30,075 nt of DNA from Armatimonadota bacterium (GTDB lineage: Bacteria > Sysuimicrobiota > Sysuimicrobiia > Sysuimicrobiales > Humicultoraceae). The stretch is from contig JBBIOM010000026.1 in the NCBI GenBank assembly GCA_037443365.1, positions 1 to 30,075 of the forward strand, read 5' to 3'. Numbering within the stretch: position 1 is the first letter of the stretch; every line of letters begins with the position of its first letter. The notes beneath the pieces are model-generated. The model saw nothing but the letters and a program-made list of their open reading frames with translations, had not been told where the DNA came from and searched no databases. The translations under genes and the position numbers were made by a program. Below, piece by piece: positions 1 through 20,012 of this stretch.

Positions 1-203
1 TGCTGGTTCCAGAACTCCACCGCCTCTTCCACGAGCCTGATGCGCGTGTCGCCCTCCGCCCCCACGGGCGCAACAGCCGGGATCTTGTCCCACGGGTAGT
101 CGTTCCCACGCCAGTGGGTTATGCCCTCCTGACCGAAGGCCACGGCGGCGATTCCGGCGATCAGTACGAGCGCAGCGGCTGTGCGGGCGGCTGCACGGCC
201 CAC
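1..203 (-). CDS. Secreted protein, N-terminal part only (continues beyond window start)
   Basis: Not in the ORF track. Minus strand reads GGAGGT-5nt-GTG at 203, then open MGRAAARTAAALVLIAGIAAVAFGQEGITHWRGNDYPWDKIPAV...RLVEEAVEFWNQ to the edge; basic N-terminus, hydrophobic core and AFG/Q cleavage-like site. Confidence 0.7.
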   Translation of the reverse strand, partial: MGRAAARTAAALVLIAGIAAVAFGQEGITHWRGNDYPWDKIPAVAPVGAEGDTRIRLVEEAVEFWNQ

Positions 204-260
204 TTGGCACCTCCCGGAGCCCCTGCCCTCGCGCTTCGGCGCCACCCCTCCAAGAACCTG

Positions 261-289
261 TTGACCGCTCAATCATTCTCGCGTACTAT
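261..289 (+). promoter_or_regulatory. Sigma70/SigA-type promoter of the DeoR operon
   Basis: TTGACC (261-266), 17 bp, TACTAT (284-289), in an AT-richer patch just upstream of ATG 308. Confidence 0.8.
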
Positions 290-305
290 CAATCACGATC
301 AATCA
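269..305 (+). promoter_or_regulatory. Putative DeoR-family operator (phased TCAATCA direct repeats)
   Basis: TCAATCA at 269-275, 289-295 and 299-305, on a 10-bp phase overlapping the promoter. Confidence 0.65.
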
Positions 306-307
306 AA

Positions 308-1063
308 ATGGATCTCCCGGTCGAGCGGCGCCAGCGCATCCTCCAGTTGCTAGAGGCACGTGGGGGTCTGCGCACCTCGGAACTGCAGCAGGCCATCGGG
401 GCGTCCATTGCCACGATCCGGCGCGACCTCAACGACCTGGCCGCGGCAAGCCTGGTAGAGCGCACGCATGGCGGCGCGCTTCCCAGGGCGCTGGGTACCG
501 CGCACGAGCCGCCCTTCTCGGTCAAGTCAGCGCTCATGCGCGAGGAGAAGGAGCGGATCGCCATCGGCGCCGCACGTCTTGTCCCGCCCGGCTCTACCAT
601 CATTCTCGACTCCGGCTCCACGACGCTGGCGCTCGCGCGCCATCTAGCCGGGAAGCGCATCACCGTGATTGCGCTCGATCTGCCCGGGGCGCAGGCCGCG
701 GCCTCGGGCGCAACCGAGGTTCTGCAGATCGGCGGCCGCGTGCGCAACGGGCTGTACAGCCTGGTGGGACCGTGGGCCGAGGATACCCTGCGTGGGCTCC
801 ACGCGGACGTCTTCTTCCTGGGCGCGGACGCCGTGGACGACGACGAGGTTACAAACAGCACAGTGGACGAGGCGGCCGTGAAGCGCCTGGCCATCCGCTC
901 GGCGCGAGAGGTGATCCTGCTCGCCGACCACAGCAAGTTCGGGCGCAGGGCGCTGGCCCAGGTCTGCCGCCTGGATGAACTGAGCGCCATCGTGACGGAT
1001 CAGGGCATCGGCCCCCGCGAGGCGGTCCTCCGCGAGCGCGTCAGGAAGGTGGTGGTTGTCTAG
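308..1063 (+). CDS. DeoR/GlpR-family transcriptional regulator
   Basis: N-terminal HTH (ERRQRIL...SIATIRRDL...RTHGGA) and DeoRC sensor domain (LDSGSTT, LADHSKFG). Confidence 0.95.
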   Translation: MDLPVERRQRILQLLEARGGLRTSELQQAIGASIATIRRDLNDLAAASLVERTHGGALPRALGTAHEPPFSVKSALMREEKERIAIGAARLVPPGSTIILDSGSTTLALARHLAGKRITVIALDLPGAQAAASGATEVLQIGGRVRNGLYSLVGPWAEDTLRGLHADVFFLGADAVDDDEVTNSTVDEAAVKRLAIRSAREVILLADHSKFGRRALAQVCRLDELSAIVTDQGIGPREAVLRERVRKVVVV

Positions 1064-1065
1064 TC

Positions 1066-1878
1066 ATGGAGCGTTTCGCCAAGCTGTTCGGAACGCGCAA
1101 GCCCGTGATAGCGATGGTGCACTTCCAGGCGCTCCCGGGTACTCCGCTCTTCGACGACGCGGGCGGGATGGACTCCCTGATCGCCCAGGCCGACAGGGAC
1201 CTGGCCGCCCTCCAATCGGCCGGCGTGGACGCGGTGATGTTCGGGAACGAGAACGACCGACCCTACGAGCTGCGCGTGGACGTGGCCTCGACCGCGGCGA
1301 TGGCCTGCGCCATCGGGCGGCTGCGCGACCGGATTACGGTGCCGTTTGGCGTGGACGTGCTGTGGGACCCGATCAGCACGCTGGCCCTGGCCGCGGCGAC
1401 GGGCGCACATTTCGCGCGCGAGATCTTCACCGGGCTCTACGGCTCGGACATGGGGCTGTGGGAAGGCCGCGCCGCCGAGGCCCTGCGCTACAGGCGCCGG
1501 TTGGGCCGCGGCGACCTGTTCCTGCTCTACAACATATCCGCGGAGTTCGCCTCCCCCCTGGACAGCCGCACGGCGGAGGAGCGCGCGCGCAGCGCGCTCT
1601 TCTCGAGCATGGCCGATGCGATCCTGGTCTCGGGGCCCATCACCGGCGAGGAGACGCCCCTCGAGCGACTGCGCGAGGTCAAGCGCGCGCTGCCGGACGT
1701 GCCGGTGTTGGCCAACACAGGCGTCCGCCACGAGAATGTCGCCGAGGTCCTGGCGGTCGCCGACGGCTGCGTCGTGGGCACCGCGCTCAAGGTCAACGGC
1801 GACACGTGGAGCCCTGTGGATCCCGCGCGTGCCGCGAAGTTCGTGGAACTGGCGCGCAAGGCGCGCGCCCGCATCTAG
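1066..1878 (+). CDS. BtpA/SgcQ-family TIM-barrel protein
   Basis: VIAMVH...LPG, MFGNENDRPY, ADAILVSG...TG, VLANTGV, ADGCVVGT motifs; 270 aa. Confidence 0.9.
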   Translation: MERFAKLFGTRKPVIAMVHFQALPGTPLFDDAGGMDSLIAQADRDLAALQSAGVDAVMFGNENDRPYELRVDVASTAAMACAIGRLRDRITVPFGVDVLWDPISTLALAAATGAHFAREIFTGLYGSDMGLWEGRAAEALRYRRRLGRGDLFLLYNISAEFASPLDSRTAEERARSALFSSMADAILVSGPITGEETPLERLREVKRALPDVPVLANTGVRHENVAEVLAVADGCVVGTALKVNGDTWSPVDPARAAKFVELARKARARI

Positions 1879-1879
1879 G

Positions 1880-3370
1880 ATGCTGGCGCTGGGCGTGGAC
1901 GTTGGCACGACCGCGTGCAAGGCGGTCCTGCTGGATGAGCACGCCCGCAACATAGCCGAGGCCGAGCACCCGCACGACCTCGCAAACCTCCAGCCGGGGT
2001 GGGCCGAGGAGGACCCGGCTGACTGGTGGCGGGGCACGGTCGCCACCGTGGGAAGGGTGCTGGCAGGTCACGACCCATCCCGGGTGCGCGCCGTGGGGGT
2101 CTCGGGGATGGTGCCGGCGCTGGTGATGCTCGACCAGGACGGAAGCCCCATCCGCCGCTCGATACAGCAGAACGACGCGCGCGCGGTCGCCGAGATACGC
2201 GCCCTCCGGCTGCGCCTGAGCGAGGACGCCCTGTTTCAGCGCACCGGCGCCACCTGGAACCAGCAGGTGATCCCGCCCAAGCTTCAGTGGATCAAGCACC
2301 ACGAGCCCGAGGCCTGGGCAAAGATCCGGCGCATCTGCGGCTCCTACGAGTACGTGACAGGCCGGCTCTCGGGCGCGCAGTACACCGAGGCCAACTGGGC
2401 GCTGGAGTCGGGCATGTGGGACGCGCTCGAGAATACCTGGTTCACTTCCGTCCTCGACCTCGTGGGGCTGCCGCCGGGAGCGCTGTCACCCGTGCGGCGC
2501 GCCCACGAGATCGTCGGAGAGGTCACCAGTGCCGCGGCGCGCGAGACCGGCCTGCGCGCCGGAACACGGGTCGCGGCCGGGAGCGCCGACCACATCGCCG
2601 CGGCGCTGGCAGCCGGCCTGGCCGCCGAGGGTGATGCCGTCCTGAAGTTCGGGGGCGCCGGGGACTTCCTCTACGCGGTGGACCGCTTCCGTCCCCTGCG
2701 CGAACTGTTCATTGATTATCACAATCTGCCCGGCCTCTACATCATCAACGGCTGCATGGCCACCTCCGGGAGCCTGGTCAAGTGGTTTCGCGACCGCTTC
2801 CACCCCGGCGCGTCCTACGCGGACCTCGACCTGGCCGCCTCGCGGATCCGGCCGGGGAGCGACGGCCTCGTGCTGCTGCCCTACTTCCTGGGCGAGAAGA
2901 CACCCCTGCACGATCCCGAGGCGCGCGGCACCGTGTTGGGGCTGACCCTTTCGCACACTCCCGCGCACATCTACCGGGCCATCCTGGAGGGCGTGGCCTT
3001 TGCGTTCCGGCATCACGTGGAGGTGCTCGAAGATGCGGGCCACCGGATATCGCGGTTCTACGTCATGGACGGCGGCGCACGCAGCGCGCTGTGGCGCGAG
3101 ATAACGGCATCGGTCCTGGGGAGGGAGGTGTACCACCTGGCCGGCGGGCACGCGGGCAGCGCGTACGGCGTGGCCTTCACGGCAGGTGTGGCCGCGGGCG
3201 CCTGGCCCTGGTCTCGCATCAGGGATAAGGTCAGGATCGCCGGGGTAACGCACCCGGAGCCCGGCGCCGTGCCCTTCTACGCGGAGGCATACGAGATCTA
3301 CCGGGAGACATACCGAAGGTTGAGGGACCTCTACCCGAGATTGAGGGGGGAGCATCTTGTCGGGGATTGA
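1880..3370 (+). CDS. FGGY-family carbohydrate kinase (XylB-like)
   Basis: ATG 1880 follows the upstream stop; LGVDVGTTACKA, GWAEEDP, PYFLGEKTP...ARG, RAILEGVAF, DGGARS motifs. Confidence 0.92.
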   Translation: MLALGVDVGTTACKAVLLDEHARNIAEAEHPHDLANLQPGWAEEDPADWWRGTVATVGRVLAGHDPSRVRAVGVSGMVPALVMLDQDGSPIRRSIQQNDARAVAEIRALRLRLSEDALFQRTGATWNQQVIPPKLQWIKHHEPEAWAKIRRICGSYEYVTGRLSGAQYTEANWALESGMWDALENTWFTSVLDLVGLPPGALSPVRRAHEIVGEVTSAAARETGLRAGTRVAAGSADHIAAALAAGLAAEGDAVLKFGGAGDFLYAVDRFRPLRELFIDYHNLPGLYIINGCMATSGSLVKWFRDRFHPGASYADLDLAASRIRPGSDGLVLLPYFLGEKTPLHDPEARGTVLGLTLSHTPAHIYRAILEGVAFAFRHHVEVLEDAGHRISRFYVMDGGARSALWREITASVLGREVYHLAGGHAGSAYGVAFTAGVAAGAWPWSRIRDKVRIAGVTHPEPGAVPFYAEAYEIYRETYRRLRDLYPRLRGEHLVGD

Positions 3371-4148
3371 GGCACTTGTCACGGGGGCCGCATCAGGCAT
3401 TGGGCGTGCGATCGCGCTGCGGCTGGCGCGCGAGGGCGTGCGCGTGTGGGTGACGGACCTGAATGCGCTTGGCGCCGGGGAGGTTGCGGCACAGATCGCG
3501 GCGTCGGGCGGGGCTGCCACCGCCCGACGCCTTGACGTCACCAGCCGAGCCGATCTGGAGCGCGTCGCCGGGGAGATCTACGCTTCCTGCGGGCGGCTCG
3601 ATCTGCTGATCGTCAACGCGGGCGTCTCGACGATGAACAACTTCCTCGACCTGACCGACGAGGAATGGGACCTCAACTTCGGCGTCAACGTCAGGGGCGC
3701 GTTCCTCACGATGCAGGTCTTCGCACGCCGCATGGTTCGCCAGGAGGCGATGCCGGGCAGGGATCTGCGCGGCAAGATCGTGCTGACGGCCTCCATGGCC
3801 GCACGGCGCGCCGCTCCAATGCTGGCGCACTACTCCGCCTCCAAGTTTGGCGCCCTAGGGCTCATGCAGGCCGCGGCCCGCGAGCTGGCGCCCCACCGCG
3901 TCACGGTGAACGCGGTCAACCCCGGCTACGTCAGGACCGCGATGCAGGAGCGCGAGGTAGTCTGGGAGGGGCGGCTCCGGGGGATGAGCCCCGAGGAGGT
4001 GGTCCGCGACTACCTGAGGGACACGCCGCTTGGGCGTCTCGAGACCCCGGAAGACGTGGCCGGGGTAGTGGCGTTCCTCTGCGGGCCCGACTCCGACTTC
4101 ATGACCGGTGAGGCCATCGAGGTGAACGGGGGCGCATGGATCGCCTGA
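3357..4148 (+). CDS. SDR-family NAD(P)-dependent oxidoreductase
   Basis: TGAASGIG, VNAG and YSASK catalytic motif; TTG start overlapping the kinase gene after a G-rich SD. Confidence 0.93.
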   Translation: MSGIEALVTGAASGIGRAIALRLAREGVRVWVTDLNALGAGEVAAQIAASGGAATARRLDVTSRADLERVAGEIYASCGRLDLLIVNAGVSTMNNFLDLTDEEWDLNFGVNVRGAFLTMQVFARRMVRQEAMPGRDLRGKIVLTASMAARRAAPMLAHYSASKFGALGLMQAAARELAPHRVTVNAVNPGYVRTAMQEREVVWEGRLRGMSPEEVVRDYLRDTPLGRLETPEDVAGVVAFLCGPDSDFMTGEAIEVNGGAWIA

Positions 4149-4218
4149 CCGCGGGTTTGCGCCCCGACCGCAACGCGCAAGCGATTCAAATACGCGCACG
4201 CGACAGGAGGTGCAGTGG

Positions 4219-5478
4219 ATGATGGTGCGAAGATCGGCATGGTTCATCCTGGCGGTTGTCCTGGCGCTCGCACTGGTGCCGCTGTCGGGCGGCCTGGCGC
4301 AGCCGAGGGCGACATTGAACCTCGTCTCGATGTCGGATCGCTTCTCCGGCGCGCTCACCCGGCTGGCGCCGGAGTTTGAACGGGCGACAGGCATCAAGGT
4401 CAACGTCACGATCCAGAGCTACGGCGAGTTGTACACCCGTGCCATCGCGGACTTCGTGGGCCGCACCGGGGGCGCCGACCTCTACACGGTGGACATCGTT
4501 TGGACCGGGGAGTGGGCGGAGAACGGCTACCTGGTAGACCTAACCCCCATGATCCAGCGCGACCGCGCCGCGATCGCCTACGACGATGTCTTCCCGTCGG
4601 TCTGGAAACTGGGCGGCTGGATGGGCAAGCAGTACGCCTTCCCGCTGGCGGCCTATGCGGGCGTGCTCTCCTACAACAAGAAGGTGCTCACCGAGATGGG
4701 CATCAAGCCGCCGCGCAGTGTGCCCGAGTTCGCGGTGGCGATTCAGAAACTCACCGGCGACGGGCGCTTCGGCATCGTCATGAATGGCGCCCGCGGGGCG
4801 CCGTGCGCGCAGGACTGGATGTACCACATGTTGATACACGGCGGCAGCATCCTGGACAAGGCCGGGATGCCGGTCCTCAACAGCACGGCCAACGTGCGCG
4901 CCCTGACCTTCTTCGCGGACATGTTCAAGTACGCGCCGCCGGGCGCCACCAGCTACGCCTGGGGCGACCGGGAGCTGGCGTTTCGCAGCGCGGTGGCCAT
5001 GATGCAGATCGGCTGGTCCACCGGGATTCGGGCGCACCGCGATCCCACGATGTCCAAGGTGGCCACGATCAGCGACATCACCACCCTGCCCCAGGCCGCG
5101 GGCGCGCCGACGCGCTACCCGCTGGGTGGATGGAGCATCGGCATCAACCGAGACTCCCCCAACAAGCAGGCGGCTTGGGAGTTCATCAAGTGGATCACCT
5201 CGCAGCGCGTGCGGCCGGACTTCGTGCGCTTCGGCGGCGAGCCCATACGCCGAAGCGAGGTTGCGGACTCCAGGCTTCTGGCCGAGTTCCCGTGGTTTGC
5301 GATGGTGGGCAAGTCATTTGATCACGCCGACGGCGACTTCCGGCCGCGCATCCGGCAGTACCCGCGGATCCAGGACATCCTGGGACTCGAGGTGAACCTG
5401 GCCATCACGGGCCAGAAGTCCCCGAAGGCAGCACTGGACGCCGCTCAGGCCGCGGCACTGCCGCTGTTTGGTCGGTAG
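4219..5478 (+). CDS. Carbohydrate-type ABC transporter substrate-binding protein
   Basis: AGGAGG SD at 4205-4210; signal peptide ending LA/Q with no lipobox; FERATGIKV, LSYNKK, AAWEFIKW (SBP family 1). Confidence 0.9.
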   Translation: MMVRRSAWFILAVVLALALVPLSGGLAQPRATLNLVSMSDRFSGALTRLAPEFERATGIKVNVTIQSYGELYTRAIADFVGRTGGADLYTVDIVWTGEWAENGYLVDLTPMIQRDRAAIAYDDVFPSVWKLGGWMGKQYAFPLAAYAGVLSYNKKVLTEMGIKPPRSVPEFAVAIQKLTGDGRFGIVMNGARGAPCAQDWMYHMLIHGGSILDKAGMPVLNSTANVRALTFFADMFKYAPPGATSYAWGDRELAFRSAVAMMQIGWSTGIRAHRDPTMSKVATISDITTLPQAAGAPTRYPLGGWSIGINRDSPNKQAAWEFIKWITSQRVRPDFVRFGGEPIRRSEVADSRLLAEFPWFAMVGKSFDHADGDFRPRIRQYPRIQDILGLEVNLAITGQKSPKAALDAAQAAALPLFGR

Positions 5479-5481
5479 CAC

Positions 5482-6363
5482 ATGAGGTGGCTGAGGCGGC
5501 TGGGGCTGCTCCCGTGGGCGGCCCCGGCCCTTCTGTTCATGCTGTGCTTCGCCTTCTACCCCCTGGCCTACTCTCTGTACATCTCCTTCTTCAAATACAG
5601 CCTGACGGATCCGTCCCAATCTCAGAAGTTCGTCGGGCTCGCCAACTACCTGAGGGCGTTCGCGGATCCGGTCTTCCGCGTCGCCGCCTTGAACTCGGCG
5701 TTGTTCGTCGTTCTGGCCGTGGGTCTCCAGATCGTCCTCGGCCTGGCCATCGCCGTGCTCCTGAACCGCGACCGGCCAGGCACCCCGCTGGTCCGCACCC
5801 TACTGCTGGCCCCGCTCACGCTCACCCCGATCGTGGTGGCGCTCGTGTGGAGGGCGCTGTACAACGCCGACTTCGGGGTGGTCTCCTACTACCTTAAGAC
5901 GCTCGGCGTGCACGTCGGTCGCGGCCCGATCGGCGAACCGTCCACGGCGCTGGCGGCCCTGGTCATTGTGGACGTCTGGCAGTGGACCCCGCTGGTGGCG
6001 CTCATGCTCCTGGCCGGCCTGCGCAGTCAGAGCGCCGACCTGTTTGAGGCGGCGCAGATTGACGGCGCCTCGGCGTGGCAGCAGTTCTGGTGCGTGGCCC
6101 TGCCCCTGCTGCGCCCGATCCTGACCGTTGCCCTGTTGATCCGAACCATGGATGTCTTCAAGCTCTTCGACTCGGTCTTCATCGTCACCGGCGGAGGGCC
6201 CGGCTACGCCACCGAGGTGATGAACCACTATATCTTCAAGACCGGTCTGACGTTCTTCGACATGGGATACGCTGGGGCGATGTCCAACCTGCTGCTGGTG
6301 CTCATCGGCCTGTTCACCGCGGCCTACTTCCGCGCCATCGGGCACCTGGGGGTCACGCAATGA
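5482..6363 (+). CDS. Carbohydrate ABC transporter permease (MalF/UgpA-like)
   Basis: Multiple TM segments, FVGLANY, EAA loop FEAAQIDGASAWQQFW. Confidence 0.93.
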   Translation: MRWLRRLGLLPWAAPALLFMLCFAFYPLAYSLYISFFKYSLTDPSQSQKFVGLANYLRAFADPVFRVAALNSALFVVLAVGLQIVLGLAIAVLLNRDRPGTPLVRTLLLAPLTLTPIVVALVWRALYNADFGVVSYYLKTLGVHVGRGPIGEPSTALAALVIVDVWQWTPLVALMLLAGLRSQSADLFEAAQIDGASAWQQFWCVALPLLRPILTVALLIRTMDVFKLFDSVFIVTGGGPGYATEVMNHYIFKTGLTFFDMGYAGAMSNLLLVLIGLFTAAYFRAIGHLGVTQ

Positions 6364-7193
6364 CGAAGCGGCAGCGCCAGCGGGTGGCCGACGCGGTGAC
6401 TTACACGCTGCTTGCCATGGTCCTGGGATTCTTCCTGTTCCCGCTCGTGTGGTTGCTGTTGACCTCGCTCAAGCCCGCGCGGGACGCGTTCGCGATCCCA
6501 CCGGTGTGGATCTTCCACCCGATCGCGGACAACTTCCGCGCCGTGTTCAAGATGGTGCCCGTGGTCTCGTATCTCAAGAACAGCCTGACGATCGCCCTGG
6601 GCACGACGGCGCTGTCGCTGGCGCTTGGCGTACCCGCGGGCTACGGGCTTGCCCGGACCGCGTCGCGCGCCGCCGGGAACACGGCGCTGCTGATGCTGGC
6701 AATACGCATGGCACCGCCCGTCGTTCTTCTGATACCATTCTACATGGTCATGCGGGATCTGCGTCTGCTGGGCACCTACCCGGCGGTGATCCTCCTGCAG
6801 AGCGTGTTCAACACGACGTTCGTGACCTGGATGATGCGCGGCTACTTCCTCTCGTTGCCGAGCGACCTCGAGCTGGCCGCGCTGACCGACGGCGCCACCA
6901 GGTTCGGAGCGTTCTGGCGCGTCGCCCTGCCCCTCTCTGTGCCGGGGCTGGCGACCGCGGGGATCTTCACCTTCACGTTCTCCTGGAACGACTTCCTCCT
7001 GCCGCTGCTGCTGTCGGGGCGCACCACCCGGACGCTGACGCTGGGGATCCTGGAGACCATGAGCACCTACGAGATCGGCTGGAACAACATGGCCGCCATC
7101 GGGATGATCACCATCCTGCCCGTGCTGCTGCTGGGATACATACTGCAGCCGTACTACATCCGCGGGCTCACCCTGGGCGCGGTCCGGGAGTAG
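6360..7193 (+). CDS. Carbohydrate ABC transporter permease (MalG/UgpE-like)
   Basis: ATGA overlap at 6360; ELAALTDGATRFGAFWRV EAA loop, FSWNDFL. Confidence 0.93.
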   Translation: MTKRQRQRVADAVTYTLLAMVLGFFLFPLVWLLLTSLKPARDAFAIPPVWIFHPIADNFRAVFKMVPVVSYLKNSLTIALGTTALSLALGVPAGYGLARTASRAAGNTALLMLAIRMAPPVVLLIPFYMVMRDLRLLGTYPAVILLQSVFNTTFVTWMMRGYFLSLPSDLELAALTDGATRFGAFWRVALPLSVPGLATAGIFTFTFSWNDFLLPLLLSGRTTRTLTLGILETMSTYEIGWNNMAAIGMITILPVLLLGYILQPYYIRGLTLGAVRE

Positions 7194-7205
7194 GAGGGAT
7201 ACGAG

Positions 7206-8501
7206 GTGGCTCTTGACCTGGTAGTTCGCAACGCCCAGTTGCGCGGGCGCGGGGGTCTGGTTGACATAGGAGTTGCAGACGGCAGGATCGCGGCCGTCGA
7301 GCCGGGCCTTCCCGCCGGCGCGGCGCAGGAGATCGACGCCGCCGGACGCCTGGTGACCGAGCCGTTCGTTGACTGCCACTTCCACATCGACAAGTCGTTC
7401 TTCGGCGAGGCAGTGGGCCGCTACGAGTACCCCCTGAGACCCCTGGGCGCGCCCGGCGAGGCGTTCGAGGGAGAGGTCAGGTCAGGCATGCAGGAGTACG
7501 AGCTGCTCCACAGCAACGTCGTGCCCATCGAGCACACCTGGGCCTTCAAGCAGCGGTACACACCCGAGGAGGTGGCGGGGAGAGTGGGCCGCGCGCTCGA
7601 GCTGGCCCTCGCGCACGGCACCCTGGCGATGCGCATGTTCGCCGACGTGGACTCGTTCGCTGGGCTGCGGGCGCTGGAAGGCGTGCTCCTGGCCAGGGAA
7701 CGGTTCGGGCGCACCATGATGCTGCAGGTGTGCGCGTTTCCCCAGGAAGGGCTGCTGACCAACCCGGCGACGGCCGACCTGATGCGCCAGGCCATGGAGA
7801 TGGGGGCCGACGTGGTCGGGGGCATCCCGTTCGTCGAGTTGGACGACGAGGGCGCCCGGCGGCACATTGACTTCTGCTTCGAGCTGGCCGCGCGCTACAA
7901 CCGCGACGTGCACATGCTGTGCGACGACGCGCCCAACCCCAACTTCCGGACGCTGGAGATGCTGGCCGCGAAGACGATCCGCGAGGGATACCACGGCCGG
8001 GTCGCCTCCGGGCACAACGGCGCCCTGCGCGTCTATCCGGACGCGCACGCCGCCAGGGTCATCAACCTGGTCAGGCAGGCCCGGATTAACATCGTGGCCA
8101 ACCCGAACGTCAACGTGCTCGGCACGCTTACGCGCGTGAACGAGCTGATGGCTGCCGGCGTCAACGTCTGCTCAGGGCAGGACGATCTGGACAACTTCTA
8201 CTATCCGCTTGGGCGCGCGGACCTGCTCGATTCCGCGAACTTCATGGTGCACACGGCGCACCTGGCCACCCCGCAGGGCTTCGAGACCGCCTTCGACATC
8301 GTGACGCGCAACGGCGCCAAGACCCTGGGGCTAGAGGGCTACGGGCTGGAGGTGGGTGCCTGGGCGAGCATGCTCATCTTCGACGGCAGGAACCTGCACG
8401 ACGTGCTGCAGATGCAGGCCGATCGCAACTACGTCATCGCCCGCGGACGCGTCGTCGCCCGCACGACGCGGCAGCGGCACATCGAGCTGATCAACGCGTG
8501 A
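7206..8501 (+). CDS. Metal-dependent amidohydrolase, cytosine deaminase (CodA)/AtzC-like
   Basis: DCHFHIDK metal motif, AFPQEG, VVGGIP, GQDD...YPLG; GGAGG SD upstream of GTG. Confidence 0.88.
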   Translation: MALDLVVRNAQLRGRGGLVDIGVADGRIAAVEPGLPAGAAQEIDAAGRLVTEPFVDCHFHIDKSFFGEAVGRYEYPLRPLGAPGEAFEGEVRSGMQEYELLHSNVVPIEHTWAFKQRYTPEEVAGRVGRALELALAHGTLAMRMFADVDSFAGLRALEGVLLARERFGRTMMLQVCAFPQEGLLTNPATADLMRQAMEMGADVVGGIPFVELDDEGARRHIDFCFELAARYNRDVHMLCDDAPNPNFRTLEMLAAKTIREGYHGRVASGHNGALRVYPDAHAARVINLVRQARINIVANPNVNVLGTLTRVNELMAAGVNVCSGQDDLDNFYYPLGRADLLDSANFMVHTAHLATPQGFETAFDIVTRNGAKTLGLEGYGLEVGAWASMLIFDGRNLHDVLQMQADRNYVIARGRVVARTTRQRHIELINA

Positions 8502-9280
8502 GCATCCCACCGATCCCTCGAGGCAGGTCCTTCGCCCACCTGACATGGGCCGAGATCAGGGACATGCCCGACAAGGACCGGGCGGTCCTCATCCAGCCGG
8601 TCGGCTCGACTGAGCAGCACGGCCCGCACCTGCCGCTGCTCGTGGACTCGGCGATCGGATCGGCCGTGCTGGCCGGGGCCCTGGAGCGCCTGGGCGAGGG
8701 AGTGCCGGCCTTCGCGCTTCCCCCGTTGTGCTACGGGAAGTCCAACGAGCACCTCGCCTTTCCCGGAACGATCTCCCTGGAGGCCGGCACGCTGCTGTCC
8801 GTGCTGATGGAGGTGGCCGGGAGTCTGCACCGTGCCGGGTTTCGCCGCCTCGCCCTGCTCAACTCGCACGGCGGCAACAACCCGGTGGTCGAGATCGCGG
8901 CGCGCGACATCCACGTTGCCCATCCCGAGATGTGGATCTTCCCGCTCTCCATCTGGGGACGGGGCGCGCTCGCTGCGCCCGCCGGGGGCGGCGGGCCCGA
9001 CCTGCACGCAGGGGACGACGAGACGAGCCTGATGCTGGCGATCGCCCCTGAGGATGTGCGCGTGGAAGCCGCGGTCACGGAGCACCCGCCGGAGCCGCTC
9101 GTGCGCGGGTTCCCCGACCCCGGGATCCCCTTTGCCTGGTCGGCGCGCGATCTGACCACCAGCGGCGTGGTGGGCGACGCCCGAGCCGCGAGCGCGGAAG
9201 TGGGCCGGCGGATCCTCGAGTCCCTGACTGCGCGGCTGGCCCAGCAGATCCGGGCGATCCACGCCTTCAGACCGGGATAG
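8498..9280 (+). CDS. Creatininase-family amidohydrolase
   Basis: PVGSTEQHGPHLP...D, SNEH.AFPGT, NSHGGN, HAG..ETS motifs; GTGA overlap with upstream gene. Confidence 0.92.
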   Translation: MSIPPIPRGRSFAHLTWAEIRDMPDKDRAVLIQPVGSTEQHGPHLPLLVDSAIGSAVLAGALERLGEGVPAFALPPLCYGKSNEHLAFPGTISLEAGTLLSVLMEVAGSLHRAGFRRLALLNSHGGNNPVVEIAARDIHVAHPEMWIFPLSIWGRGALAAPAGGGGPDLHAGDDETSLMLAIAPEDVRVEAAVTEHPPEPLVRGFPDPGIPFAWSARDLTTSGVVGDARAASAEVGRRILESLTARLAQQIRAIHAFRPG

Positions 9281-9340
9281 GGACCTGGATCCAGCAAGGG
9301 CCTGTCACCCCATTCGACGAAGCCGTAGAGGAGACGATAA

Positions 9341-11401
<2,061 letters not shown>

Positions 11402-13139: not shown

Positions 13140-14687
13140 GTGCCGTCCGACCGCCTGGAAGACCTGCGCCGCCGTCGCCAGCGCCTCCTGGCCATGGGAG
13201 GCGCGGAGCGCGTTCGCCGGCAGCACGAGGCCGGCAAGCTCACCGCGCGCGAGCGCCTCGACCTGCTCCTGGATCCCGGATCGTTCGTGGAACTGGACCC
13301 GTTCGTCGAGCCCCGCTGCCGCGACTTCGGGCTGGACCGTGTCGAGGCTCCGGCCGACGGCGTGATCACCGGGCACGGGGCCATTGACGGGCGGCCCGTG
13401 CACGTCTTCTCGCAGGACTTCACGGTCCTGGGCGGGTCACTCGGCGAGGGGCACGCCGCGAAGATCTGCAAGGTCATGGACCTGGCGACCAGGACCGGCA
13501 CGCCGATCATCGGCCTCAACGACTCGGGCGGCGCCCGCATCCAGGAGGGCGTGGTCAGCCTCGGCGGGTACGCCGACATCTTCCTGCGCAACACGCTGGC
13601 CAGCGGTGTGGTGCCCCAGATCTCGGCGATCATGGGTCCGTGCGCCGGGGGCGCGGTCTACTCGCCGGCGATCACCGACTTCACGGTGATGGTGCGGGGC
13701 ACCTCGTACATGTTCGTCACCGGCCCCCAGGTCGTGAAGACGGTCACGCGCGAGGAGGTCTCTTTCGAGGAACTGGGCGGCGCGGATGTGCACGCCGCTC
13801 GAAGCGGCATCGCGCATTTCGTGGCCGGGAACGACGAGGAGTGCCTGGACCTGCTGCGACGCCTGATGGGCTTCCTCCCGTCCAACAACCTGGACGACCC
13901 GCCGCGGCGACATCCCACCGACGATCCGTCCCGCGCCGATCCGGCCCTCGACGAACTCGTGCCCGAGGATCCGTCGCGGCCCTACGATATGCACGTCGCG
14001 ATCCAGCGCATCGTTGATGACGGCGAGTTCCTCGAGGTCCACGCCGCGTTCGCTCGCAACCTCATCGTGGGATTCGGCCGGCTGAACGGCTGGCCCGTGG
14101 GCGTCGTGGCCCAGCAGCCCGCGGTCATGGCCGGCGTGCTCGACATAGACGCCTCGGTCAAGGGCGCGCGGTTCGTGCGGTTCTGCGATGCCTTCAACAT
14201 TCCCCTGCTCACGTTCGTGGATGTGCCGGGGTTCCTGCCGGGCACGGCCCAGGAGCACGGCGGCATCATCCGGCACGGCGCAAAGCTGCTCTACGCCTAT
14301 TGCGAGGCCACGGTGCCCAAGATGACCGTGATCACGCGCAAGGCCTACGGCGGAGCCTACGACGTCATGAGCAGCGCCCACATCCGCGGCGACCTCAACC
14401 TGGCGTGGCCGACGGCCGAGATCGCCGTAATGGGGCCTGAGGGCGCCATTGACATCATCTTCCGGAAGGAACTCGCCGAGGCGCCCGACCCCGAGGCTCG
14501 CCGGCGCGAGCTCGTGGCCGACTACCGCGCGAGGTTCGCGACGCCCTACGTGGCGGCCGGCCGCGGGTACGTTGACGATGTGATCGAGCCGCGCGAGACG
14601 CGGCGCCGCCTGATCGCCTCGCTCGACCTGCTGCGGCGGAAGCGCGCCTCAAACCCAAGGCGCAAGCACGGCAACATACCCCTGTAG
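13140..14687 (+). CDS. pccB: Acyl-CoA (propionyl/methylmalonyl-CoA) carboxylase carboxyltransferase beta subunit
   Basis: [40 protein letters not shown]-terminal KHGNIPL. Confidence 0.93.
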
Positions 14688-14764
14688 TCCAGAGGAATCA
14701 CAGGACCCCAGGCGGAATCCCCCCATGGATCCCAACAGGAGTCTTGTAGGAACGCCGACGTGAC

Positions 14765-15238
14765 ATGAAGCTGCAACCCGTCGAGGCAGGCGACCCTCGC
14801 TTCCGCGAATGGCTCAGCCGGTACCGGGAGGAGATCACCGGTGAGGTGCCCTCGGAGGAGTGGCTCGACAAGTACACCCGGGCGCTGTTCTCCCGCGTCA
14901 ACAAGCGCCGTCACGTCTGGTGGGCCATAGACGGCGGCCGCAAGGTCGGGTTCGTGGTCGCCGCGACGGGCAGGCACTGGGCCGACCGCTCGCGCACGCA
15001 GGCCCAGATCGGCGAGTTCTTCATCTATCCCCAGTACCGCCGCGAAGGACTGGGCCGGCGCCTCGCCCAGACGGTCATCGAGTGGCTCAAGTCGCAGGGC
15101 GCGGGCGAGATCCAGTCAGGGGTGATTGCCGGCAACCTCAGGGGCCTCAGGTTCTGGGAGGCCGTGGGGTTCCAGATAGCGCGCTTCTCGCTCGTGTATC
15201 GCCCGGACCGGCCTCGCGAGCCCGACGAGGACGACTGA
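14765..15238 (+). CDS. GNAT-family acyltransferase
   Basis: EFFIYPQYRREGLGRRL (motif A), N..GLRFWEAVGF. Confidence 0.88.
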   Translation: MKLQPVEAGDPRFREWLSRYREEITGEVPSEEWLDKYTRALFSRVNKRRHVWWAIDGGRKVGFVVAATGRHWADRSRTQAQIGEFFIYPQYRREGLGRRLAQTVIEWLKSQGAGEIQSGVIAGNLRGLRFWEAVGFQIARFSLVYRPDRPREPDEDD

Positions 15239-15246
15239 CCTCGAAG

Positions 15247-16731
15247 ATGCCGCTTCCCCGCCGCCTGCTGGTCGCCAATCGCGGCGAGATCGCCGTGCGC
15301 ATCCTGCGCGCCTGCCGCGATCTGGGAATCGAGACAGTGGCCGTGCACGCGCCGGTGGACGCCGGGGCCCCGCACGTGTGCCTGGCCGACCGCGCCCTGC
15401 CGCTGCCGGGCGACTCCCCGGCCGAGGGCTACCTGAACCGCGCCGCGCTCGTGGAGATTGCGTCGCGCTGTGGGGCTGGCGCCATACACCCCGGGTACGG
15501 GTTCCTCTCTGAGAACCCGTCCTTCGCGGCGGCGTGCGAGGCCGCGGGCATCGCGTTCGTGGGACCACCTGCCTCGGTGCTGCGGATGTGCGGGGACAAG
15601 GCCGAGGCCCGGGCGGCCGTCGAGGCCGCCGGCGTCCCTGTGCTGCCGGGCTCCGGGCCCGTGGACGACGCAGAGGTCCGGCGCGCGGCCGAGGCAGTCG
15701 GCTTTCCGCTGCTGATCAAGGCGGTGGGCGGCGGCGGCGGCAAGGGCATTCACCTGGTGCGGTCGCCGGACGATCTGCCCGGCGCCCTGCGATTGGCCCG
15801 GGGCGAGGCGCAGACCGCCTTCGGGGATCCGCGCGTCTATCTCGAGCGATGGGTCGAGCGGCCGCGGCACGTCGAGGTGCAGGTCCTGGCCGACGCGCAC
15901 GGAGGCGTGGTTCATCTGGGCGAGCGCGCCTGCTCGGTGCAGCGCCGGCACCAGAAGCTCATCGAGGAGGCCCCTGCCCCGGGCGTCTCACCTCGCGTGC
16001 GCGAAGCCCTGCTGGAATCGGCCGTGCGCGTGGCGCGGGCGCTTCGCTACCGCAACGCCGGCACGGTGGAGTTCCTCCTGGACGGCGACGCCTTCTTCTT
16101 CATCGAGGTCAACGCCCGGCTGCAGGTTGAGCACCCGGTGACCGAGATGATAACCGGAACGGACATCGTCGCGGCGCAGATCGCGGTGGCCGGGGGCGCG
16201 CCCGTCCCGTTCTCGCAGGAGGACGTGCGCCCCGCAGGCTGGGCCATTGAGTGCCGTATCAGCGCCGAGGACCCGCACGGCGGGTTCCTGCCCTCGCTTG
16301 GGCGGATCGACGGCGTGATCGAACCCCAAGGCCCGGGCATCCGCGTGGACAGCGGCTTTCGGACCGGGTGCGTCGTGTCCAGGCACTACGACCCCCTGCT
16401 GTCCAAGGTGGTGGCCTGGGGACGCGATCGGTCCGAGGCGATCGCCCGCATGAGGCGCGCACTGGCCGAGTACGCCATCTCGGGCGTGGACACCACGATT
16501 CCGTTTCACCGCTGGGCGATCGAGCAGCCGGCCTTCCTCCGGGGGACTTACGACGTGCGGTTTGCCGAGGATTGGGACGGCGCAGCCCCCTCGCAGGAGG
16601 CGGAGCGCCTGGCCGCGGTTGCGGCCTCGGCGTGGCTGCGCCGCAGAGCCGCCGCCCAGCCCCGTGACGGCCACGGCGCCGGTCCGGCATCCAGGTGGAT
16701 CGCCGTCGCAAGGGAAGAGGGCATCCGGTGA
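15247..16731 (+). CDS. Biotin carboxylase subunit of acyl-CoA carboxylase
   Basis: LLVANRGEIA, HPGYGFLSEN, GGGGKG, ERACSVQRRHQK, EVNARLQVEHPVTE; true start at ATG 15247. Confidence 0.95.
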   Translation: MPLPRRLLVANRGEIAVRILRACRDLGIETVAVHAPVDAGAPHVCLADRALPLPGDSPAEGYLNRAALVEIASRCGAGAIHPGYGFLSENPSFAAACEAAGIAFVGPPASVLRMCGDKAEARAAVEAAGVPVLPGSGPVDDAEVRRAAEAVGFPLLIKAVGGGGGKGIHLVRSPDDLPGALRLARGEAQTAFGDPRVYLERWVERPRHVEVQVLADAHGGVVHLGERACSVQRRHQKLIEEAPAPGVSPRVREALLESAVRVARALRYRNAGTVEFLLDGDAFFFIEVNARLQVEHPVTEMITGTDIVAAQIAVAGGAPVPFSQEDVRPAGWAIECRISAEDPHGGFLPSLGRIDGVIEPQGPGIRVDSGFRTGCVVSRHYDPLLSKVVAWGRDRSEAIARMRRALAEYAISGVDTTIPFHRWAIEQPAFLRGTYDVRFAEDWDGAAPSQEAERLAAVAASAWLRRRAAAQPRDGHGAGPASRWIAVAREEGIR

Positions 16732-17218
16732 ACTTCGAGATCAGGATCCGGGGGCAGGCCCAGGCGGCCGAGTCCGGCGATGGCGTTCTGCTCGAGCCGC
16801 TGGCGGGGTCCGAGTGCTGGACGCTCGTGGTCGCGGGAAGAACCGTTCCGGTGCGCGTGCGGGAGCAGGAGGGAAGGCTCCTCGTCACGATCGGCGCCGA
16901 CCGGGTCGAGGTGGGAGTGCGCCGCGCGTCGGCGTCCTCATCGCGCGGGCCCTCCGCCCAGAACGGCGCAGATCGCTTCGAGGTGCGGGCGCCCATGCCA
17001 GGGCTGGTTGTCACCGTCCCGGTGGCGGCCGGCGAGCCGGTGCGGGCCGGGAGTGTGGTCGCGATCGTTGAGGCGATGAAGATGCAAATGGAGGTCGTCT
17101 CCCCGGCAGCCGGGCACGTCGAGGAGATCCGCGCCCTGCCAGGCCAGGAGGTGGCCGGCGGGCAGGTCATGGCCCTGATCAGGGTGCCGGCCTCTGCTCC
17201 TGACGAGGGGGCGGCCCG

Positions 17219-17222
<4 letters not shown>
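16728..17222 (+). CDS. Biotin carboxyl carrier protein
   Basis: APMPG...EAMKM biotinylation motif; GTGA overlap at 16728. Confidence 0.92.
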
Positions 17223-18754
<1,532 letters not shown>

Positions 18755-18758
18755 GGGC

Positions 18759-20012
18759 GTGAGGGACGACGAGATCCACGCACTGGTGCGCGCCGTCGTG
18801 GCCGGATCGGTTCAGGCGGTCGCTCGCCTGATCACGTTGATCGAGAACGACGGCGATGATGCCGCATCGGCGCTGCGCGTCCTCTTCCCGCACACCGGGA
18901 AGGCCCACGTCGTCGGGGTGACCGGGCCGCCTGGGTCGGGCAAGAGCACGCTGGTCAACGCGGCCATTCGAGTCCTGAGGACGCAGGGCCGGCGCGTCGG
19001 CGTCGTCGCGGTGGATCCCAGCAGCCCGTTCACGGGCGGCGCGCTTCTAGGCGACCGCATTCGCATGCAGGACCACAGCACCGACCCGGAGGTGTTCGTG
19101 CGCTCCATGGCCACGCGCGGGAGTCTCGGCGGGCTGGCGCCGGCCGCGGGCGAGGCCGTGGCAGTGCTGGACGCCTGGGGCGCCTCGACGATCTTCATCG
19201 AAACCGTGGGCACAGGGCAGGCCGAGGTGGACGTGGTCTGTGCCGCCGACACGGTGGTGGTTGTGTGCGCGCCCGGCCTGGGCGACGGGGTCCAGACCCT
19301 GAAGGCCGGCGTGATGGAGATCGGCGACGTGTTCGCCGTGAACAAGGCCGACCGTCCGGACGCCGACCGAACCCTGACCGATCTCAAGATGGTCCTGGCC
19401 ATGGCCCCCGAGGGTGGCTGGCGCCCTCCTGTGCTGGCTACGGTGGCCACCACCGGCCAGGGCGTCGCCGAGGTGCTGGAAGCAGCAGGCGAGCACCTGC
19501 GCCACCAGGAGCAGAGCGGCGGCCTGGCAGACCGGAGGAAGACCCGCTGGCGACGCGAGGCCGCCCTGCGGCTGCTGGAGGCGGACGTCCGTGTGGACCA
19601 CATAGGCGTGGCGGTGCGCAGCATAGCAGAGGCGGCGCGGTTCTACGGCGAGGTGCTGGGGCTGCGGGCCGGCCCGCCCGAGCAGATGCCGGCGCAGGGC
19701 GTCACGATGGTCTTCTTCGACGCCGGGGGGACCAGGATCGAGCTGCTGGAGCCCCTGGCCCCGGACGGGCCGATCGCCCGTCACCTGGAGCGCCGCGGCG
19801 AGGGCGTCCACCACATAGCGCTGGCCGTGCCCAACCTGGAGCAGGCGCTGGAGACCGCGCGGGCAGCGGGTTTCGAGCCGGTTGACGCTTCCCCGAGGCC
19901 GGGCGCGCACGGCACGCGCGTGGCCTTCCTGCACCCCAGGGGCACGCACGGGGTGCTCGTGGAGCTGGTCGAGCACGCGCCCCGGGTTGCCCCCCTACCC
20001 CCGAAGCGGTAA
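18759..20012 (+). CDS. MeaB/ArgK GTPase fused to methylmalonyl-CoA epimerase (VOC fold)
   Basis: GPPGSGKST, DPSSPFTGGALLGDRIRM, ETVG, NKAD, then in-frame DHIGVAV...IELLEP...GVHHIAL...FLHP...GVLVELVE. Confidence 0.88.
   Translation: MRDDEIHALVRAVVAGSVQAVARLITLIENDGDDAASALRVLFPHTGKAHVVGVTGPPGSGKSTLVNAAIRVLRTQGRRVGVVAVDPSSPFTGGALLGDRIRMQDHSTDPEVFVRSMATRGSLGGLAPAAGEAVAVLDAWGASTIFIETVGTGQAEVDVVCAADTVVVVCAPGLGDGVQTLKAGVMEIGDVFAVNKADRPDADRTLTDLKMVLAMAPEGGWRPPVLATVATTGQGVAEVLEAAGEHLRHQEQSGGLADRRKTRWRREAALRLLEADVRVDHIGVAVRSIAEAARFYGEVLGLRAGPPEQMPAQGVTMVFFDAGGTRIELLEPLAPDGPIARHLERRGEGVHHIALAVPNLEQALETARAAGFEPVDASPRPGAHGTRVAFLHPRGTHGVLVELVEHAPRVAPLPPKR

Follow-up and report, generated by a model that had tools for sequence, protein, structure and literature searches.

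We report here on a nine-gene cluster in an Armatimonadota bacterium (assembly GCA_037443365.1) whose 2.2 Mb genome has a G+C content of approximately 70%. The cluster lies in a window of 30,075 nucleotides (nt) of contig JBBIOM010000026.1, read on the forward strand, and by the window we mean this whole stretch of DNA. All nine genes, between positions 308 and 9280, are on the plus strand; they encode a DeoR-family regulator, a member of the BtpA/SgcQ family, an FGGY kinase, a short-chain dehydrogenase/reductase (SDR), the binding protein and two permeases of an ATP-binding cassette (ABC) importer and two metallo-amidohydrolases, one CodA-like and one of the creatininase family (Table 1). A preliminary description of this DNA had listed nine co-directional, tightly packed genes, and each was recovered where it had been placed or a few bases away, with every family confirmed by both Pfam and NCBIfam. 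Read directly from the sequence, the spacings in gene order are +2, +1, -14, +70, +3, -4, +12 and -4 nt; the stop and start codons of the two hydrolase genes overlap, and a permease gene lies 12 nt before this pair. Both flanks are unrelated to the cluster: upstream there is only a short reverse-strand open reading frame (ORF) without a Pfam match, and downstream the housekeeping gene ligA (9368-11401) starts 87 nt beyond the cluster and is followed by further housekeeping and propionate-pathway genes.

Table 1. Features of the nine-gene cluster and its control region, in window coordinates.
Feature	Position	Strand	Basis
Promoter-like site and three direct TCAATCA repeats	261..305	+	TTGACC-17 nt-TACTAT at 261-289; repeats at 269, 289, 299
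DeoR/GlpR-family repressor	308..1063	+	HTH_DeoR and DeoRC, 155.7 bits
BtpA/SgcQ-family protein, predicted phosphate-binding TIM barrel	1066..1878	+	PF03437, 247.7 bits
FGGY carbohydrate kinase, xylulokinase-like	1880..3370	+	FGGY_N and FGGY_C
Classical SDR, polyol or secondary-alcohol dehydrogenase type	3357..4148	+	adh_short
Extracellular solute-binding protein of a sugar-type ABC importer, 5IAI type	4219..5478	+	SBP_bac_1, 149.2 bits
ABC permease 1	5482..6363	+	BPD_transp_1
ABC permease 2	6360..7193	+	BPD_transp_1; its ATG overlaps the stop codon of permease 1
CodA/AtzC-like metallo-amidohydrolase, distinct subfamily	7206..8501	+	Amidohydro_3, 117.1 bits
Creatininase-family amidase, HGGN type	8498..9280	+	PF02633, 234 bits

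The promoter-like site, which sits just before deoR, is the only sigma-70-like site in positions 1-9600, yet the evidence for a promoter is weak because one site was found where 0.5 would be expected. No terminator-like site was found after any of the nine genes; the three such sites that were detected all fall inside coding sequence and are not above the level in shuffled sequences. Judging by how closely they are spaced, by the lone promoter-like site and by the lack of terminator-like sites between them, the nine genes appear to form one operon. Exact TCAATCA occurs three times in the window, every time within 269-305. This count alone is weak, as 11 of 100 shuffles reach three matches anywhere, but CAATCA-type repeats also precede deoR in close relatives (L095, L096, L097 and L111) and in a Meiothermus locus (L010), and the repeats are therefore likely to represent a DeoR operator, albeit a putative one. 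In L010, which belongs to Meiothermus granaticius, the CAATCA direct repeats lie upstream of position 9280 and overlap a promoter-like TTGACA before deoR.

By sequence, the closest solved relative of the binding protein is 5IAI (E 5e-103, 348.5 bits over residues 31-417), and a conformational study of ribitol makes use of 5IAI as a 1.6 Å ribitol complex (PMC8468352). The binding-protein gene has an alternative GTG start at 4210. The importer genes do not include one for an ATPase, and none was found among the nine; elsewhere in the genome, contig C24 encodes a MalK-like ATPase that shares 52% identity with the one in the cluster of another BtpA locus (L066).

The regulator, the kinase and the SDR all fall short of the curated equivalog cut-offs. 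The DeoR protein stays under every NCBIfam equivalog cut-off, its best score being that for GlpR (183.9 against 300 bits). The kinase is a member of the FGGY family and fails the XylB equivalog TIGR01312 (313.7 against 380.25 bits); in the PDB it scores best against 3IFR (414.5 bits), an entry that bears the title 'Carbohydrate kinase, FGGY', and it is also near xylulokinases. The SDR, which reaches no NCBIfam cut-off, is nearest to an Agrobacterium carbonyl reductase and to acetoin and sorbitol dehydrogenases, with PDB matches to 3AK4 (240.4 bits) and to the sorbitol dehydrogenase 1K2W (130.1 bits). The preliminary description had pointed out that no standard glycosidase, phosphorylase, isomerase or aldolase is encoded, and indeed Pfam and NCBIfam detected none of these families among the nine products. 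The genome does encode a ribulose-phosphate 3-epimerase (RPE).

The CodA-like protein matches Escherichia coli cytosine deaminase with 192 bits and AtzC with 180 bits. Its motifs are DCHFHIDK, AFPQEG, DVHMLCDD, SGHNGA and GQDDLDN. The metal-binding and catalytic residues of CodA are the HxH motif, His214-x-x-Glu217, His246 and Asp313, with Gln156 binding the substrate; the corresponding positions were read from our alignment. The cluster enzyme shares the fold of CodA and AtzC and retains HxH, the Gln of AFPQEG, the later His and the DD of strand 8, but differs from both in having DVHMLCDD in place of HxxE, so that Glu217 aligns with an Asp and a His stands two residues upstream. It also has about 23 extra residues inserted behind HxH. 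A table of 42 sequences shows that the motif set, including the change, is kept in orthologues and in looser relatives, whereas neighbouring paralogues retain HxDE. The subfamily can thus be recognized by D[CS]HFHI[DG]K, AFPQEG, H-x-L-C-D-D, S-x-HNGA and GQDDLDN, canonical HxxE being absent; in more distant relatives (L129-L133 and L135) a Ser occupies the position of the His. The protein stays under every NCBIfam cut-off, including those for cytosine deaminase CodA (NF005748, 294.7 against 438 bits; NF006685, 238.9 against 483 bits).

The second hydrolase belongs to the creatininase superfamily, which includes creatinine amidohydrolase, MftE, ArfB and IolN, its PF02633 match covering positions 1-238 of 238 and far exceeding the threshold of 31.3 bits. 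In an alignment with creatininase, Glu, His, Asp, His and His are shared, but where creatininase has Glu122 within HYEN the cluster protein has a Gly within HGGN. An assignment as creatinine amidohydrolase was rejected, as the score against the equivalog TIGR04448 is 113.9 against 235 bits and Glu122 is not present. The cut-off of the mycofactocin peptidase MftE (TIGR03964) was likewise missed (147.5 against 172 bits), and the protein is also under the cut-off for IolN.

Membership of the third unusual protein in the BtpA/SgcQ family is secure: the PF03437 match covers positions 1-253 of 254 against a threshold of 30 bits, and TIGR00259 scores 257.9 bits against a cut-off of 153.4. The cut-off of the equivalog for the BtpA of photosystem I biogenesis, NF045918, was not reached (182.8 against 400 bits). 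A search by sequence against the PDB gave no match at E ≤ 0.01. An AlphaFold2 model built from a 34-sequence alignment (mean predicted local distance difference test score 94.8) shows alternating strands and helices that form a TIM barrel. Invariant Gly-rich loops (S189-G190, N217-T218-G219 and G238) follow the strands at 185-188, 214-216 and 234-237; these SG, NTG and VG loops after strands 6, 7 and 8 correspond to the standard phosphate-binding arrangement, and the model suggests that BtpA probably binds phosphate. The invariant polar residues are H19, N61, E62, D101, R118, D128, N156, E160, D233 and K242. Foldseek relates the model to TrpA, KDPGal aldolase, RPE, ThiE and PcrB with TM scores of 0.53-0.61, and VIA-align returns a flat list of 50 entries with Z falling from 19.3 to 15.8. 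The structural neighbours are barrels that handle sugar phosphates or heterocycle phosphates, namely KDPGal aldolase, hexulose-phosphate synthase, GGGPS, ThiE, HisF, TrpF, RPE and TrpA; because no single family stands out among them, the fold gives no specific reaction. The suggestion in the preliminary description that BtpA acts on a phosphorylated intermediate would fit such a predicted phosphate-binding barrel.

Whether the amidohydrolases are conserved together with the cluster had been set beforehand as a test of its unity, and we found that they are. Neighbouring genes were named only from Pfam matches or from tblastn matches covering at least 40-50% of the query. Among 94 genomes of the phylum, including two unpublished ones (G015 and G024), CodA-like orthologues of at least 82% identity were found in five relatives, and in every one of these the whole set accompanies them. 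The orthologue of the binding protein was found in 6 of the 94, exactly those with a CodA-like orthologue of at least 82% identity, and BtpA in 18. The full set is 55-92% identical in G002, G005, G006, G020 and G001 (the contig of the last is cut at the FGGY gene), and it recurs in distant contigs at 44-72% (L002/L112) and 41-71% identity (L114). A metagenome scan with the CodA-like protein returned 29 loci, 19 of them with a CodA-like match of at least 53% identity. In 15 of these 19 a creatininase gene follows the CodA-like gene, or in 15 of the 16 that can be judged, as in three cases the contig breaks off within 350 nt of the CodA-like gene. The other ten loci, with CodA-like matches of at most 42%, have none of this linkage.

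BtpA and DeoR genes are present in all six loci that have at least 8.8 kb of upstream sequence, and this holds across three gene arrangements. The order of the window is found also in L111 and L114. In L113 it is shuffled to DeoR, BtpA, CodA-like, creatininase, SDR, binding protein, permeases 1 and 2 and FGGY, so that the two hydrolase genes come directly after BtpA. The third layout (L118, L125 and L127) is divergent: one strand carries an FGGY or OTCase-like gene, then BtpA and DeoR, and the other carries an ABC ATPase, a fused permease, Amidohydro_1, an NMT1-type binding protein, the CodA-like and creatininase genes, an enolase and a MOFRL glycerate kinase. Two further loci, L112 and L123, whose contigs break off at FGGY and at DeoR, respectively, are consistent with these arrangements.

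An orthologue of the binding protein, about 46% identical to that of the window, is encoded on 55 Rhizobium plasmids, and the one orthologue that we examined, from a Rhizobium leguminosarum plasmid, matches 5IAI with 658 bits. Besides the same type of binding protein, this plasmid shares with the cluster permeases, SDR, DeoR, BtpA/SgcQ, FGGY and amidohydrolase-superfamily genes; three of the last kind lie near the binding-protein gene, together with a questin-oxidase-like gene, a FAD oxidoreductase, the ABC genes and a gamma-glutamyltransferase-family gene. Among 401 sampled Hyphomicrobiales genomes, 19 have the binding-protein orthologue, and within 10 kb of it we counted an amidohydrolase-superfamily homologue in 18 of the 19, the sole exception being a contig end. 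The amidohydrolase termed AH3 is a neighbour in 17, a questin-oxidase-like gene in 17, an SDR in 10, BtpA in 5 and FGGY in 5. By these counts, the sugar enzymes are linked less tightly to the ribitol-type binding protein than an amidohydrolase is. The Hyphomicrobiales loci differ from the cluster in the questin-oxidase-like gene, in often having a FAD oxidoreductase and in lacking the creatininase gene (0 of 19), and their hydrolases are only 27-30% identical to the CodA-like enzyme of the window.

Seen from BtpA, two types of cluster predominate. We examined the best 80 of 549 relatives, with one representative genome per species, and an FGGY kinase accompanies BtpA in 70 of these loci. A gene of the M42 (SgcX-like) metallopeptidase family is present in 58 of the 80, mostly in Alphaproteobacteria, and in 51 it comes directly after BtpA. 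A core of DeoR, BtpA, FGGY and SDR genes with 57-79% identity occurs in Deinococcota, Chloroflexota and the phylum of the window.

We consider it about an even chance (a probability of roughly 0.5) that the nine genes form one DeoR-controlled operon for the import and degradation of a ribitol-type polyol to which a hydrolysable nitrogen group is attached. Gene content, gene packing, linkage across lineages, a ribitol-type binding protein and the fold class of BtpA are the observations behind this reading, and from them we infer all catalytic steps, the sequence in which they occur and the nature of the nitrogen group. Candidate substrates would be a ribityl- or otherwise pentityl-substituted amidine, ureide, lactam or N-heterocycle. 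The binding protein and the two permeases would import the compound with an ATPase borrowed from elsewhere in the genome, after which the CodA-like metallo-amidohydrolase and the creatininase-family amidase may remove or ring-open the nitrogen part. The SDR would then oxidize a secondary hydroxyl of the polyol chain to give a ketose, the FGGY kinase would phosphorylate the terminal hydroxyl, and BtpA might turn the phosphorylated ketose (or ketosamine) into an intermediate of the pentose phosphate pathway. The preliminary description had proposed a sugar or polyol attached to an N-heterocycle; of this, the polyol and the nitrogen group are retained in our best reading, while the heterocycle becomes one of several options. 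It had also named a plain sugar as ligand of the binding protein, together with hydrolases neither co-transcribed nor conserved with the cluster, as the outcome that would tell against it: the first part agrees with the plain ribitol in 5IAI, whereas the second is contradicted by the conservation of the hydrolases.

Several observations weigh against the proposed degradation of a nitrogen-bearing polyol. The imported ligand could be a bare polyol, because 5IAI holds plain ribitol, and hydrolytic deamination by the CodA-like enzyme is not assured because its HxxE motif is missing. Only 2 of the 80 best BtpA loci have a CodA-like match and only 2 a creatininase match; in loci such as L004, L007-L010, L017 and L068, with FGGY and SDR at least 57% identical, the core is combined with different ABC systems and lacks both the CodA-like and the creatininase gene, and the hydrolase-free core includes Thermus and Meiothermus. 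As the core usually lacks these genes, BtpA and its kinase can evidently do without the amidohydrolases. The two nearest paralogue-level CodA-like genes in the phylum have no BtpA in their vicinity: that of G016 (64%) is paired with a creatininase gene, and that of G028 (58%) has as neighbours a second amidohydrolase, a sugar-type ABC system with its binding protein and a xylose-isomerase-like barrel. One locus, L116 (55%), has 4.6 kb of downstream sequence without a creatininase gene. Coupling to BtpA and FGGY is not obligatory either, because only 5 of the 19 Hyphomicrobiales binding-protein loci have them, and the conserved full sets are not independent of one another because many come from close kin.

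The main rival to a nitrogen-bearing substrate is a plain pentitol (ribitol-type) operon, in which the SDR would yield a pentulose and the FGGY kinase pentulose 5-phosphate, BtpA would be an accessory and the hydrolase pair a separate, linked module for nitrogen scavenging. The rbt and dal pentitol operons of Klebsiella comprise an SDR ribitol dehydrogenase, an FGGY pentulokinase and a repressor, and a pentitol oxidized by the SDR and phosphorylated by the kinase is pentulose 5-phosphate, for which no further dedicated enzyme is needed. The cluster resembles them in its repressor, SDR, FGGY kinase and polyol transporter, the solved relative of its binding protein holding ribitol; it differs in adding BtpA and two metallo-amidohydrolases with conserved linkage, and in a kinase and an SDR that reach no curated equivalog cut-off. 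The argument that BtpA stands in for a missing isomerase or aldolase, made in the preliminary description, is therefore weak and fails for pentitols, because SDR and FGGY already yield pentulose 5-phosphate. The ribitol in 5IAI, the classical pentitol layout, the hydrolase-free core in Deinococcota and elsewhere, the hydrolase pair without sugar genes in G016 and the wider distribution of BtpA in the phylum (18 of 94 genomes) than of the CodA-containing version (6 of 94) all favour such an operon. Yet the hydrolase pair stays linked to BtpA and DeoR through three gene orders, in L113 lying between BtpA and the SDR; its genes overlap and are 12 nt from a permease gene; binding proteins of the 5IAI type in Hyphomicrobiales have an amidohydrolase as neighbour nearly always, an SDR in about half of the loci and FGGY in about a quarter; and a plain ribitol route leaves BtpA without a task. 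We regard a plain pentitol operon as unlikely.

Three routes with a more specific chemistry are less probable still. In an aminopolyol or ketosamine (Amadori-type) route, which we consider quite improbable, the hydrolases would deacylate or decarbamoylate an N-substituted 1-amino-1-deoxy-pentitol, the SDR would form the 1-amino-1-deoxy-ketose, the FGGY kinase would phosphorylate it and BtpA would be the deglycase, running in reverse the Amadori step that TrpF and HisA run forward and releasing pentose 5-phosphate and the amine. TrpF, HisA and HisF are indeed among the structural neighbours of BtpA (Z 16-17.7), but the flat neighbour list does not single out TrpF and HisA. The M42 metallopeptidase-family gene beside BtpA in most of the best loci also fits, as does L075, which combines PfkB, BtpA, M42, FGGY, SIS-domain and creatininase genes; the frl system for fructoselysine likewise has a PfkB kinase and a SIS deglycase. 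The core of DeoR, BtpA, FGGY and SDR, however, exists without any hydrolase. In E. coli, the sgc operon is induced by carbon sources that contain nitrogen (PMC13343008), which would agree with this chemistry. Least probable of all, in our view, is a modified nucleoside or nucleobase conjugate with ribose as the sugar, whose base the hydrolases would deaminate and open, BtpA replacing the missing nucleosidase or phosphorylase. CodA-like relatives from the same phylum (L100 and L101) lie beside PnrA/Bmp-type ABC systems, which are nucleoside-binding, others (L102 and L104) beside NMT1-type ABC systems and xanthine-dehydrogenase-like genes, and the Rhizobium region carries a BMP-family ABC system and further amidohydrolases. 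Against this, the window encodes a binding protein of the sugar type (CUT1) whose solved relative has an open-chain pentitol bound, and an SDR with an FGGY kinase suits a polyol or ketose, not a ribofuranoside. A hydrolytic ring-first route for ribityl heterocycles, such as breakdown products of flavin, lumazine, deazaflavin or ribitylaminopyrimidine, is a long shot, on a par with the ketosamine route. In such a route the amidohydrolases might open a pyrimidine-type ring, the SDR and the kinase might activate the ribityl chain, and BtpA might act on the phosphorylated ribityl conjugate as a lyase or isomerase, releasing pentose phosphate in the manner in which TrpA cleaves indole-3-glycerol phosphate. 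According to PMC12746152, the ribitol-releasing and ring-first pathways for riboflavin depend on enzymes that were never purified, and papers on riboflavin breakdown describe other enzymes, namely RcaE and the products of Lum genes and fin genes (PMC12746152, PMC13492142). Because the riboflavin passages of these two papers mention neither BtpA nor creatininase, the riboflavin idea remains speculation. Were the ring-first route true, it would provide the first catalytic function for BtpA/SgcQ and genes for the classical riboflavin pathways.

The closest parallel in a model organism is the sgc operon of E. coli (sgcR, sgcA/B/C, sgcE, sgcQ and sgcX), which also serves sugar uptake and combines a DeoR-family regulator with a BtpA/SgcQ protein and a metallohydrolase. 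It differs from the cluster in using a phosphotransferase system instead of an ABC importer and a kinase, in encoding SgcX, an M42 hydrolase, where the cluster has its CodA-like and creatininase enzymes, and in having the RPE-like SgcE and no SDR. A 2026 study still calls the sgc operon putative and, in its passages on the operon, reports no growth defect of sgc mutants on 190 carbon sources (PMC13343008). We found no paper that describes the present cluster or assigns a catalytic function to BtpA/SgcQ; the name BtpA in the literature mostly refers to an unrelated TIR protein of Brucella. The BtpA/SgcQ family, widespread and without an established catalytic function, is now placed in a defined, recurring context, in which an FGGY kinase is the rule and a metallohydrolase is present in most loci, whether M42 or, as here, the CodA-like and creatininase enzymes. 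In the cluster it is tied, in addition, to a binding protein for which the structure of an orthologue with ribitol has been solved. The CodA-like enzymes constitute a distinct subfamily with a remodelled active site (HxLCDD for HxxE), almost always paired with an HGGN-type creatininase-family enzyme. A long-unexplained family is thus linked to a pathway that can be tested, as the proteins are expressible and a related cluster exists in culturable Rhizobium.

Further observations concern the relatives of the cluster. In the dominant BtpA context (L011-L080, for example L027:10001-13412) BtpA is followed by M42 and then by an FGGY gene about 33% identical to the kinase of the window, a BtpA-M42 pairing that mirrors sgcQ-sgcX in E. 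coli; of the 80 best BtpA loci, 40 also encode a PfkB kinase and 37 an aldo-keto reductase. Meiothermus granaticius has two CodA-like genes (39-40% identity; G096:C36:519-2920) about 11.5 kb upstream of its DeoR-BtpA cluster on the same contig, and HMGL-like and 'putative cyclase' (formamidase-type) genes after its ABC genes. In L118, L125, L126 and L127 (for example L127:12646-14943 and L126:2074-4760) the creatininase gene is followed by an enolase and a DUF4147/MOFRL (glycerate-kinase-type) gene, and in L118 and L127 an OTCase-like carbamoyltransferase gene takes the place of FGGY beside BtpA; because of these enolase, MOFRL and OTCase-like genes, the third architecture hints at glycerate and a carbamoyl compound as products. 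Permease 2 and the CodA-like gene are separated by a gene for a small DMT_YdcZ membrane protein in two distant versions of the cluster, L002 (14619-15044) and L114 (9516-9980), and L002 has in addition a RibD_C-domain gene about 600 nt past the creatininase gene.

The CodA-like paralogue nearest in the phylum (L100, G016:C241, 3518-17159) is divergent from creatininase and FAD_binding_4 genes and is flanked by the PnrA/Bmp-type ABC system, a second amidohydrolase and a xanthine-dehydrogenase-like molybdoenzyme. The Rhizobium plasmid region (L140/L141, NZ_CP025506.1 305000-338342) is an island of nitrogen-compound catabolism in which a further amidohydrolase stands with the BMP-family ABC system, a Rieske dioxygenase and a GST, and the gamma-glutamyltransferase-family gene lies beside FGGY. 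Elsewhere in the window, positions 13140-20012 hold a propionyl-CoA-type operon with genes for a carboxyltransferase, a GNAT protein, a biotin carboxylase, a biotin carrier and a methylmalonyl-CoA mutase, and the ORF at 18504-20012 joins a MeaB GTPase and a glyoxalase-type (epimerase-like) domain in a single frame.

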